Part shown: positions 3,559-8,241 of the stretch, in pieces
How positions within the stretch are numbered: the stretch's first letter is position 1
How the letters are laid out: each line of letters starts with the position of its first letter
IMG/VR virus record: IMGVR_UViG_3300031576_000029
Span: 64,001 to 76,584 of that record
DNA from: a virus
Lineage: Duplodnaviria > Heunggongvirae > Uroviricota > Caudoviricetes
Length of the DNA: 12,584 nucleotides
Strand: one strand, 5' to 3'
Translations under genes and position numbers: made by a program
Notes under the pieces: generated by a model
Told to the model about the DNA's origin: nothing
Database searches by the model: none
What the model saw: only the letters and a program-made list of their open reading frames with translations

Positions 3559-3615
3559 TAGTTGTTAATTCAGGAAAAAGAAAGAAGTTTATAGATTTCA
3601 CCTAGTTAACAACTA
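3559..3615. promoter_or_regulatory. Divergent pair of TTAACAACTA motifs (candidate phage late promoter)
   Basis: Exact 10-mer on the minus strand at 3559-3568 (toward the packaging genes) and on the plus strand at 3606-3615 (toward the endolysin). Further exact copies lie at 8114-8123 and 8581-8590, both minus strand. Confidence 0.6.
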
Positions 3616-4043: not shown

Positions 4044-4228
4044 TGACAAAAAAATTTACAGAAGAAGAAATAAAAAAACTTGAAGAAAAAAATCGTGAAG
4101 AGATATTAGAAAAATTTTGTCATACTAATGGATGTTTTGGTCATTATATGCAACATCATGAATTTCCACACAAATACGTAAAATGTGTTATATGTGGACA
4201 CACGAAAGAACTAAAAAAGAAATCTTAA
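4043..4228 (+). CDS. Hypothetical small Cys/His-rich protein
   Basis: Translationally coupled to the upstream gene (TAATG). Contains CHTNGC...H and CVICGH, possible Zn ligands. Confidence 0.6.
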   Translation: MTKKFTEEEIKKLEEKNREEILEKFCHTNGCFGHYMQHHEFPHKYVKCVICGHTKELKKKS

Positions 4229-4500
4229 CTGTTTTTTAATGACTTCAAAATTTTTTTATAAACAAAATTAATAGGCTGATTACTTTCGCTAGTAAATTTT
4301 GTATAATCTTCTAATTGTTTCCTCAAAATTCCACACATTTCTTCATAAATCCTTATCATTTCAAGAAGTTCTTTAGTATAATGTACTTGTAATTCATGAT
4401 CTTTCATAGACATTACAAGATTATAGGAATGTTTAACTCTATCACCTACATCCACAGTGTCATATATTAATGTGTTTATTTGCTTTTCTGTAAGATCCAT
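4225..4500 (-). CDS. Hypothetical protein (91 aa)
   Basis: ORF track; overlaps the end of the PLP-enzyme gene; its stop abuts the convergent plus-strand stop. Confidence 0.55.
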   Translation of the reverse strand: MDLTEKQINTLIYDTVDVGDRVKHSYNLVMSMKDHELQVHYTKELLEMIRIYEEMCGILRKQLEDYTKFTSESNQPINFVYKKILKSLKNS

Positions 4501-5393
4501 AGTAATTTTTCAAATTTTTCTTCAGAACATCCGACTGATATTCTAAAATAATCATTTGATACTCCAAATTTCTCGCCAGGAGTACTTATAATACTTTTTG
4601 GACATTTTCCCACACACCAAATGAACATTCCAGAACTGTTTAAAATTACAAATGAAAGTTTTTGAAGATTATGTAATTTTTTCCATCTTTTATCCAATAT
4701 AATTCTACCATACTCAAAAATAGTAACAAGAATATCTAATTGCGATCTAATTATTTTTTCAGCTTCTAATTGAGAATAAATAGATATCCCACCTGTTGCA
4801 AATTCTATATATTCTTCCATTTTTTTTACTATTTGTTCGTCTTTAATTAAAGCCCATCCTATTCTTGCAGATGCATGCCCTGTGCATTTGCTTAAGCTAA
4901 AAACCATGATATCTTCATTAAATTCAATAGGTTCGTGATATTGATACCAATTATAAGATAAATCATAAATTATATATTTTGAATGAATTTGGTGATAAAT
5001 ATTATTGTCCGGATTATTAGGACATGTGATTATTTGTACAAACTCAGGATGCCGGTTATCAAGCCAAGATTGTCCGGCAAATTTAGTATAATGTTTAAAT
5101 CTGGGAAAATAAGGAGAATTAGCTGATACTGGAAGATCTAAGGCATAAATTATAGCGGATAATATCTGTCCAGCACCATTACCAATTACTACAAATTTAT
5201 CATCAATCATGGCATTTTTTTCTTGTTTATGTAGCTTCTTTATAGCGGTTTTTAACTCATCAATGCCTGTATATAAATATGAAAGACCTTCTGGAGTAAG
5301 AGTGTATGATTCAGAAGATTTTTTAGACCAATAATCATGTAGAAAATCAGGAGAACCCCATGAAAGATTTAATTTTTCAACCTTAGGCGGCAT
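4476..5393 (-). CDS. PLP-dependent fold-type I enzyme, TAA1/TAR tryptophan aminotransferase / alliinase-like
   Basis: PLP-lysine motif [33 protein letters not shown] (PLP Asp) and C-terminal YFRIS (Arg). The N-terminal [11 protein letters not shown] and [10 protein letters not shown]..NA blocks parallel Arabidopsis TAA1 as recalled. Confidence 0.85.
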   Translation of the reverse strand: [305 protein letters not shown]

Positions 5394-5592
5394 ATTGTTT
5401 TTCTGCTAATCTTATCTTCTTAATATGTTCTTTCATCTTGACCCGATGACATTCGGGACAAACTCGACCGTTGAAGAGATTACCTTTTACATCTCGCCAT
5501 CTTTTATTAATATTATCTGGATATTTATCATCTAAGATAGCCTCTTTAATTATTTTACATGTTTTACATTGAATTTTTCTCATTTCGTTCAT
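5383..5592 (-). CDS. Hypothetical Zn-finger-like protein (two CxxC)
   Basis: CKTC and CPEC; overlaps the start of the downstream gene. Confidence 0.6.
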   Translation of the reverse strand: MNEMRKIQCKTCKIIKEAILDDKYPDNINKRWRDVKGNLFNGRVCPECHRVKMKEHIKKIRLAEKQYAA

Positions 5593-5600
5593 AGGAATCT

Positions 5601-5735
5601 CTAAATCTGGAGACCAGCGGTCAACTCACCACTTTTCCATTTAACCCAGGAAACAGAGATAATCTCTATCTCTTTAGGAACTGCAGGTGACGCAAAGCTT
5701 CCTAGTTCTCCGGAACATTCGTTGCAAACTAACAG
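5601..5735 (-). CDS. Possible 44-aa CxxC protein with CTG start
   Basis: Hand translation: TAAGGA-N6-CTG, then (M)LVCNECSGELGSFASPAVPKEIEIISVSWVKWKSGELTAGLQI*. It fills the 5593-5767 gap in the minus-strand operon. The start is non-canonical. Confidence 0.3.
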   Translation of the reverse strand: MLVCNECSGELGSFASPAVPKEIEIISVSWVKWKSGELTAGLQI

Positions 5736-5767
5736 AGTAGTTCCTTAAACAATTGCAGGCTTTACGG

Positions 5768-8099: not shown

Positions 8100-8241
8100 G
8101 ATTGTTTCTATAATAGTTGTTAATTAACGTTTTTTACGTTTCTACAGCCCTGAGCGTTAGCAAAGGGCGATTGATACTAAATTTCTAGAAACCTAATAAG
8201 ATATAGATTCCCACTACCATTTTTACATATTTTAAAATACG

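Follow-up and report, generated by a model that had tools for sequence, protein, structure and literature searches.

A compact TAA1/alliinase-family enzyme gene of an uncultured tailed phage belongs to a large phage-borne clade

The gene P0001 of an uncultured tailed phage encodes a true member of the TAA1/TAR/alliinase (Alliinase_C) family and not a HisC/AspAT-type enzyme, as sequence and fold comparisons support, and the clade in which it falls is large and almost confined to uncultured tailed phages. We regard these two statements, membership in the family and placement in a phage clade, as jointly close to certain. Plants owe their auxin precursor, and garlic its allicin, to the TAA1/alliinase family of vitamin-B6 enzymes. 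Whether P0001 is active, what type of reaction it catalyses, on which substrate and to what advantage for the phage are matters of inference, and we read them as follows. P0001 would be a catalytically competent, homodimeric fold-type I PLP enzyme that has kept all its cofactor- and carboxylate-binding residues, and in the infected cell its most probable part is that of an auxiliary metabolic enzyme which needs no partner and has a free L-alpha-amino acid as its substrate. The reaction would be a transamination like that of TAA1, in which an amino acid of hydrophobic, aromatic or sulfur-containing type reacts with pyruvate or another 2-oxo acid to yield the 2-oxo acid and alanine. Taken as a whole, this description of a competent, trimmed and homodimeric family enzyme from a phage clade, working as a stand-alone auxiliary metabolic transaminase, is the best explanation overall and a probable one, if only just.

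The window, that is the whole stretch of DNA that was analysed (12,584 nucleotides), constitutes the final 12.6 kb of a 76.6-kb IMG/VR virus record with a completeness of 87% according to CheckV. The enzyme gene is located in it as follows:

4476..5393, minus strand: TAA1/alliinase-family PLP enzyme gene (P0001), recognised from its ORF, the Alliinase_C match, the TAA1 and alliinase matches, the AlphaFold model, Foldseek and the codon check

According to the ORF list and translation, this frame at window positions 4476-5393 starts with ATG and encodes 305 aa, stop codon included in the coordinates, and the opposite plus strand holds no competing ORF of at least 50 aa. The GC content of the gene is 29.8% against 31.8% for the genome. 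The Pfam model Alliinase_C (PF04864) matches residues 9-245 with an E-value of 5.3e-51 and 174.1 bits (cut-off 22), far above the 49.9 bits (E 3.5e-13) of the generic Aminotran_1_2 model (PF00155), which covers mainly the C-terminal half. As PF04864 also matches weakly in 5 of the 14 control prokaryote genomes, it is the size of the score and not the bare match that counts for P0001. The NCBIfam equivalogs for HisC, AspAT, DapL and similar enzymes reached 13-43 bits for cut-offs of 276-617 (the best one 42.9 bits vs 415, and HisC 26.4 vs 276), scores so far under the cut-offs that an ordinary bacterial aminotransferase of the HisC/AspAT/DapL type was rejected. A sequence search of the PDB retrieved TAA1 (3bwn, E 4e-34) and garlic alliinase (2hor/1lk9, E 4.6e-28), the next match having an E-value of 0.09, and the PHROGs collection gave a weak match only, to a family of unknown function. 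The HMMER alignment places residues 8-247 of P0001 onto residues 25-301 of TAA1 (3bwn) and contains the blocks SK.TGHA..RIGWAL.KD...KKM.EYI, EL..AIK.LH....NA and F.YGR....RW.KL.

An earlier note, made from the letters of this DNA alone, had described the ORF as a compact, AT-rich PLP enzyme with a complete fold-type I motif set and a likeness to TAA1 going beyond generic aminotransferase motifs. The complete 305-aa frame and its Alliinase_C match confirm the PLP enzyme, the size and GC content agree with the two adjectives, and the fold-type I motif set is complete. The three motif pairs that it had set side by side also appear, as quoted, in the alignment with TAA1, so the resemblance is real and specific. 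The best relatives are TAA1 and alliinase instead of ordinary bacterial aminotransferases, and no annotated phage orthologue of known function was found.

The fold-type I motifs of P0001 consist of the phosphate loop G71-N-G-A-G-Q76, Y95, P125-N-N-P-D129, D144, Y147, S168-K169, R177 and R284. The codons of the key residues were located by the codon check:

5355..5357, minus strand: codon of G13
5277..5279, minus strand: codon of Y39
5175..5177, minus strand: codon of G73
5013..5015, minus strand: codon of N127
4962..4964, minus strand: codon of D144
4953..4955, minus strand: codon of Y147
4887..4889, minus strand: codon of K169, the PLP lysine
4863..4865, minus strand: codon of R177
4542..4544, minus strand: codon of R284

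Among 27-62 members from phages, algae and plants, little or no variation is seen at G13, Y39, G73, N127, D144, K169, R177, R236 and R284, and the cofactor and carboxylate positions are invariant or more than 90% conserved across these three groups in two alignments (A1 and A2). G13, Y39, N127, D144, Y147 and R177 align with G64, Y92, N207, D225, Y228 and R259 of alliinase, whose roles in the cofactor and substrate site are known from the alliinase structures. K169 aligns with K217 of TAA1, which is its PLP lysine (PMC6997161), and R284 with Arg401 of alliinase, a ligand of the substrate carboxylate (PMC4460571).

The fold leads to the same relatives. The AlphaFold model, built from a 27-sequence alignment, has a mean pLDDT of 93.7 and a pTM of 0.91, and Foldseek ranks TAA1 first (E 4.6e-30, TM 0.89 by query) followed by alliinase (1.2e-27), ahead of the best generic class I aminotransferase, which reaches only 1e-18. 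The structural neighbours among the AFDB cluster representatives and in the ESM Atlas are streptophyte Alliinase_C clusters (TM 0.93). The bacterial class I enzymes (HisC, AspC, YbdL and MalY, together with Thermus AspAT and KAT) share the fold type and the catalytic residues of P0001, but are only 14-19% identical to it in fold alignments and form very long branches outside the family in trees. A homodimer with the canonical interface, including residues 36-40 and 72-76, is predicted from a two-copy model with PLP. The ipSAE of this model is 0.90, compared to 0.00 for the best control, with at least 95% contact agreement between runs and a partner pLDDT of 91-92; among proteins solved as pairs, 20 of 30 reach this mark, and among those solved as single chains 1 of 23 does, but since TAA1 and alliinase dimers are already solved, the pass may reflect the memory of the model or this likeness and not independent evidence.

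Within the family, Arabidopsis TAA1/TAR1/TAR2 (3bwn, 3bwo) are the best sequence and fold relatives of P0001. TAA1 belongs to the same Pfam family and is, like P0001, a single-domain protein devoid of an EGF domain, with the same PLP-lysine block, phosphate loop, Asn/Asp/Tyr triad and C-terminal Arg, and the predicted homodimer adds to this likeness. It is however longer (391 aa vs 305 aa), and the regulatory T101 of its PLP pocket is replaced by Gly75 in P0001. P0001, being phage-encoded, also falls outside the land-plant TAA1/TAR1/TAR2 clade, in a separate phage clade. Compared with plant members, P0001 begins 8 residues before the conserved N-terminal motif, with no N-terminal extension or EGF domain, four of its surface loops are shortened (after residues 41, 88, 116 and 218), and its small C-terminal domain has lost 14 aa after residue 250 and 9 aa after residue 265. 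With 305 aa, the protein offers structural biologists and enzymologists a minimal version of the family scaffold.

The chemistry of P0001 could be that of an aminotransferase, a reading of its sequence on which we stand about evenly divided. The main competing reading, which we find rather unlikely, sees in P0001 a C-S lyase that works by beta-elimination, as alliinase, MalY and PatB do, and that would convert cysteine, cystine, cystathionine or an S-substituted cysteine or its sulfoxide into pyruvate, ammonia and a thiol or persulfide, e.g. for the supply of sulfur or pyruvate during infection. Garlic alliinase is indeed the second-best solved relative of P0001, and the known PLP and aminoacrylate contacts of alliinase have counterparts at G13, Y39, Y95, N127, D144, Y147, K169, R177 and R284. 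The same residues are common to TAA1, and therefore do not discriminate a transaminase from a lyase; the failure of the compared residues to tell transaminases from beta-lyases also has to be set against a transaminase. A gene of the IscA/HesB type for Fe-S assembly (E 1.3e-16) adjoins the homologue in one phage lineage (L023/L028), where it would fit sulfur mobilisation, but this is only one of at least seven gene contexts. Tryptophan aminotransferases have moreover been suggested to derive from alliinase-like ancestors (Koper et al. 2024, PMC11214133). This proposal and the IscA neighbour count against a transaminase, as does the Gly at the position of TAA1 T101, and the gain of a phage from such an enzyme is not obvious.

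Allium alliinase (1lk9, 2hor) and the plant TAR3/TAR4 proteins are of the same family as P0001, alliinase being close to it in sequence (E 4.6e-28) and fold (1.2e-27) and having its Gly64, Tyr92, Lys251 and Arg401 matched in P0001. They differ in that P0001 has neither the EGF-like N-terminal domain of alliinases (PF04863, no match) nor their C-terminal extension, and its clade-specific columns are mostly not in the alliinase state. The plant TAA clade can be told from the alliinase clade at 13 columns. In this comparison, a weak one of few columns at the level of the alignment only, the majority of the phage sequences have the TAA state at 6, including I178 (beside R177), A189 and F257, and that of the alliinases at 2. 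Aminotransferases make up most of the class I fold-type I enzymes and, to our knowledge, lyase activity has been demonstrated in this family only for the Allium enzymes, which form a derived, EGF-bearing clade. It is for these reasons, together with the 6 versus 2 column states, that we lean to transamination.

Relatives of P0001 are numerous. A word-indexed search returned 56 homologues with 28-52% identity, nearly all metagenomic and many of them on contigs of 60-90 kb, while HMMER, run exhaustively over 1.84 billion cluster representatives, gave 793 homologues at E <=1e-3, 415 at 1e-10 and 118 at 1e-30. Homologues are present at 22 loci of IMG/VR, and the compact relatives of about 300-375 aa number in the hundreds. 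The identity of the phage clade to TAA1 is 30-38% (E 1e-34), and the nearest ESM Atlas clusters with PF04864 are assigned for 83-99% to Viruses/Uroviricota. Metagenomic phage proteins of this compact size (P0002, P0038, P0051 and P0148, and those of IMG/VR loci L007-L028) share with P0001 33-52% identity over the full length, the same architecture and conserved residues, and a phage-borne gene, and differ by their distribution over the various gene neighbourhoods or phage types, on contigs of up to 157 kb. Their JGI labels are only those of generic aminotransferases or of an "L-tryptophan-pyruvate aminotransferase". By tblastn, P0001, P0148 and P0051 had no match in 50,697 GenBank phage records, nor did the whole window by megablast against GenBank phage records, and no family member was found in BFVD. 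No relative came out of 185,579 genomes of prokaryote species in two scans by pattern, but the patterns were narrow, and the absence of the family from these genomes is thus only weakly evidenced.

Comparison of gene orders distinguished at least seven unrelated phage contexts for the homologues. Besides the type of the window itself, they include a sister type with the gene next to those for endolysin and packaging, one in which RNR and a PD-(D/E)XK nuclease occur, an NT5C ... DUF932 type, phages of 96-157 kb where the homologue is found between a phage GroEL and an SbcC-like ATPase, and a DnaE/RecA/DnaB type, and further types exist. Synteny with the window is conserved in related phages of 67-86 kb, at 41-52% identity. 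The contexts checked are all from phages with two exceptions, one bacterial chromosome and one giant-virus contig. The bacterial homologue (P0145) is found among ordinary housekeeping genes of bacteria on a contig of 318 kb and had no match in 72,556 plasmids, and the giant-virus one (P0206) adjoins an NCLDV major capsid protein, an A32 ATPase and VLTF3. For phage biology, the family appears as a widespread and unannotated metabolic gene, presumably stand-alone, that recurs in many unrelated uncultured phages.

The enzyme gene is situated between the phosphatase/early block and the lysis-packaging module of a tailed-phage genome. In the window, nearby genes encode the portal and TerL, an M15 endolysin, and two phosphatases, one a NinI-like phosphoesterase and the other of HAD type. 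It is flanked by two small ORFs:

5383..5592, minus strand: upstream ORF of 69 aa with two CxxC pairs (zinc-ribbon-like), with sub-threshold matches only to zinc-ribbon Pfam families
4225..4500, minus strand: downstream ORF of 91 aa, whose ATG lies 25 nt inside the 3' end of the enzyme gene

The end of the 69-aa ORF overlaps the start of the enzyme gene by 11 nt, and these overlapping start and stop positions suggest a translational coupling of the enzyme gene to both small ORFs. No Pfam family was found in the 91-aa ORF. Homologues of the 69-aa ORF (cluster c8) adjoin the enzyme gene or are near it in the related phages L001, L007 and L008/9 and are absent in other lineages; those of the 91-aa ORF (cluster c13) occupy the same position in L001, L007 and L008/9 only. 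The zinc-ribbon ORF, considered as a conserved partner, was rejected as it is not kept across lineages among 29 loci, and the clustering of neighbours over the same number of loci revealed no gene conserved beside the enzyme across lineages, the IscA-type gene of L023/L028 being the one suggestive neighbour.

The rest of the genome encodes ThyX, a dCMP deaminase, a class II RNR, PolB, DnaB, UDG, MazG, a MazZ-like domain, Ro60 and an RNA ligase. Several lineages also place the enzyme gene among RNR, NT5C, PD-(D/E)XK nuclease, SbcC-like ATPase, DnaB and DnaE genes, and this, with the MazG and the MazZ-like dGTP diphosphohydrolase domain of the present genome, could evoke a role in the modification of phage nucleic acids or nucleotides: instead of free amino acids, the enzyme might for example process one that is attached to a hypermodified base, as PLP enzymes of thymidine-hypermodifying phages do. 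Such a role appears quite improbable. Unlike the known thymidine-hypermodification systems, the genome displays ThyX and dCMP deaminase and, among the 26 early-region ORFs of at least 110 aa inventoried with Pfam, no ThyA-type dUMP hydroxymethylase, 5-hmdU DNA kinase-like or base-transferase family; nothing in this inventory, which covers the larger ORFs only and a genome that is 87% complete, is suggestive of an amino-acid or base-hypermodification pathway. PurZ is absent from the genome, no neighbour is conserved across lineages, and the R284/G13 clamp for the alpha-carboxylate of a free amino acid is conserved. A link with Z-genomes was likewise dropped, the MazZ-like domain being present and PurZ not. 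So was a link with a SAM lyase: PF23780 occurs in this genome and in 2 of 5 other records carrying the gene (in one of them below the cut-off), and is absent from two near-complete ones. To return to the metabolic enzyme that we favour, the clamp for the carboxylate, a cofactor site that is complete and the absence of any conserved or phage-encoded pathway partner together point to a protein most likely acting alone on a free L-amino acid.

The phylogeny was reconstructed by FastTree on 222 rows and by IQ-TREE with C20, in a quick version (104 rows) and a careful one (67 rows). The three trees agree on a Viridiplantae clade comprising both TAA and alliinase/TAR3-4 subclades, a protist pair, a bacterial pair (P0145 and P0214) and several phage clades, including the clade of ~300-aa proteins to which the window belongs (support 98 in the quick tree and 96/88 in the careful tree). 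All the family rows are separate from HisC, AspC, YbdL and MalY in the FastTree and quick C20 trees (support 85-95), and in the careful tree the very long branch of MalY falls into the poorly resolved base. The backbone is without resolution: the quick tree joins the eukaryotes, the NCLDV copy, the bacterial pair and P0093 (support 97), a grouping not recovered in the careful tree. With 3-9 changes per site, the branches of the E. coli outgroups HisC, AspC, YbdL and MalY are too long for rooting, and given such a backbone we make no claim on the direction of gene transfer. The position of all phage-type sequences on one side of a branch was not rejected by the AU test (p 0.987). The root inside phage diversity seen with FastTree was not upheld, the constrained tree with phage monophyly being better than the quick free tree (p-AU 0.987) and the base of the careful tree having no resolution.

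Judging from these trees, the phages did not recently take their genes from plants, and these genes form deep and diverse lineages. Given that the family is otherwise known from eukaryotes, P0001 could in principle be a recent eukaryotic capture, the product of a chimeric assembly or a decaying passenger, which we consider hardly credible. The GC content of the gene matches that of the phage (29.8% and 31.8%), synteny is kept in the related 67-86 kb phages at 41-52% identity, the catalytic residues are all intact, and the supported phage clade is separate from the plant clade (96/88). With the putative translational coupling to phage ORFs, these observations effectively refute the whole idea.

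The significance of the phage clade for the origin of the family comes from the published view of its distribution, as papers on how auxin synthesis arose regard it as essentially eukaryotic. The clade of tryptophan aminotransferases was described as "found almost exclusively in plants" (PMC9309667), the best reported prokaryotic relatives, about 25% identical with E-values of about 1e-8, serving as distant outgroups (PMC9309667, PMC11214133, PMC4754409). Where the origin of TAA is debated, the homologues cited from prokaryotes are similarly 25% identical, with E-values of 1e-8 to 1e-7 (PMC4754409; see also PMC5611494, PMC10015382), and our literature search found no paper connecting the alliinase/PF04864 family with phages. 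Against this background of a family confined to plants and to protists and having prokaryotic relatives of such low identity, the phage clade matters: along with one bacterial and one giant-virus member, it changes the taxon sampling and provides much closer comparators to specialists of auxin origin. The earlier note had proposed a possible unrecognised prokaryotic or viral branch relevant to the origin of the family. It had also suggested that P0001 may act on aromatic amino acids or sulfur compounds, a role for which no conserved pathway partner turned up. A large phage clade does exist, but its relevance to the origin does not follow in the same way, since it is not specifically sister to the plants, the backbone lacks resolution and the outgroups are too long for rooting. 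That the phage-borne radiation, with the rare bacterial and giant-virus copies, is sister to the eukaryotic TAA/alliinase family, or even gave rise to it, is a tentative and unlikely proposition. If true, the family that makes auxin would have entered eukaryotes from a gene pool of viruses or mobile elements, or moved the other way once and very early, and the phage sequences would be the close outgroup so far missing from the long dispute on the origin of TAA.

A recurrent motif of the phage could be related to the transcription of the enzyme gene:

8114..8123, minus strand: exact copy of the TTAACAACTA motif, a candidate late promoter

Four exact copies of TTAACAACTA are present in the window, each aligned with the direction of local transcription, and the copy at 8114-8123 heads a leftward string of genes, from 8062 to 4225, which includes the enzyme gene and which it might drive. 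Scans for sigma-70 promoters and terminators remained at chance level. The 175-nt gap at 5593-5767, in which no tRNA or Rfam family was found and whose fold z-score is -1.55, could hold another transcription start. The only sequencing runs carrying the DNA of the window are DNA runs of one cave-metagenome study, probably its source sample.

Homologues of the phage enzyme carrying the Alliinase_C domain (PF04864) were also found in non-phage contexts. On an 11.5-kb contig (JGI 3300010883), an NCLDV major capsid protein gene has the 427-aa Alliinase_C gene P0206 as its immediate downstream neighbour, and A32 ATPase and VLTF3 genes are present on the same contig; the family therefore extends to giant viruses of eukaryotes. 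The sole bacterial chromosomal context among those found is a 318-kb contig (JGI 3300059473 / NCBI) encoding P0145, a 344-aa homologue located amid small ORFs of no known function, with an HNH protein and an AAA_14/DUF4143 ATPase encoded close by. RlmN, PfkB, glutamate dehydrogenase and DHODH genes border this neighbourhood, which may represent a small island.

In phages of 96-157 kb (loci L024-L026, L034 and L035), the position of the Alliinase_C gene is constant: it always separates a phage-encoded GroEL-like chaperonin (Cpn60_TCP1) and a small zinc-ribbon ORF from an SbcC/AAA_23-like ATPase. One further phage lineage (L023 and L028) displays a gene convergent with the Alliinase_C homologue, a neighbour that possibly hints at sulfur chemistry:

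L023:6970-7287, same position in L028, minus strand: IscA/HesB-type Fe-S cluster assembly gene (PF01521, E 1.3e-16)

Within the window, the zinc-ribbon ORF located upstream of the enzyme gene is preceded by a spacer of distinct composition:

5593-5767: 175-nt spacer separating the zinc-ribbon ORF from the phosphatase gene, GC higher than its surroundings

This spacer contains a 10-bp hairpin, with a fold z-score of only -1.55 for the whole spacer, and a search of it for a tRNA or an Rfam family retrieved neither. A repeated motif, TTAACAACTA, is present in four exact copies, all pointing along local transcription:

3559-3568, minus strand: exact copy
3606-3615, plus strand: exact copy
8114-8123, minus strand: exact copy
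8581-8590, minus strand: exact copy

With one mismatch allowed, 5 matches were observed against a mean of 2.3 in shuffles, and the motif is considered a candidate phage promoter. The window also encodes a predicted SAM lyase in the early region, followed by a DUF932-like ORF:

11799-12167, plus strand: 122-aa S-AdoMet_lyase ORF (Pfam PF23780, E 2.2e-13)
12226-12582: DUF932-like ORF

The phage genome to which the window belongs encodes both a MazG domain and, outside the window, a MazZ-like domain:

G000:C1:25139-25432, plus strand: MazZ-like dATP/dGTP diphosphohydrolase N-terminal domain (PF18909, E 1e-30)

This 87%-complete record has no PurZ/adenylosuccinate-synthetase homologue, and so gives no indication of a 2-aminoadenine genome. 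The terminase of one related phage (L002) probably harbours an intein or a homing-endonuclease insertion:

L002:3365-5893, plus strand: TerL, 842 aa, with WhiA_N/LAGLIDADG_3 matches within Terminase_6N
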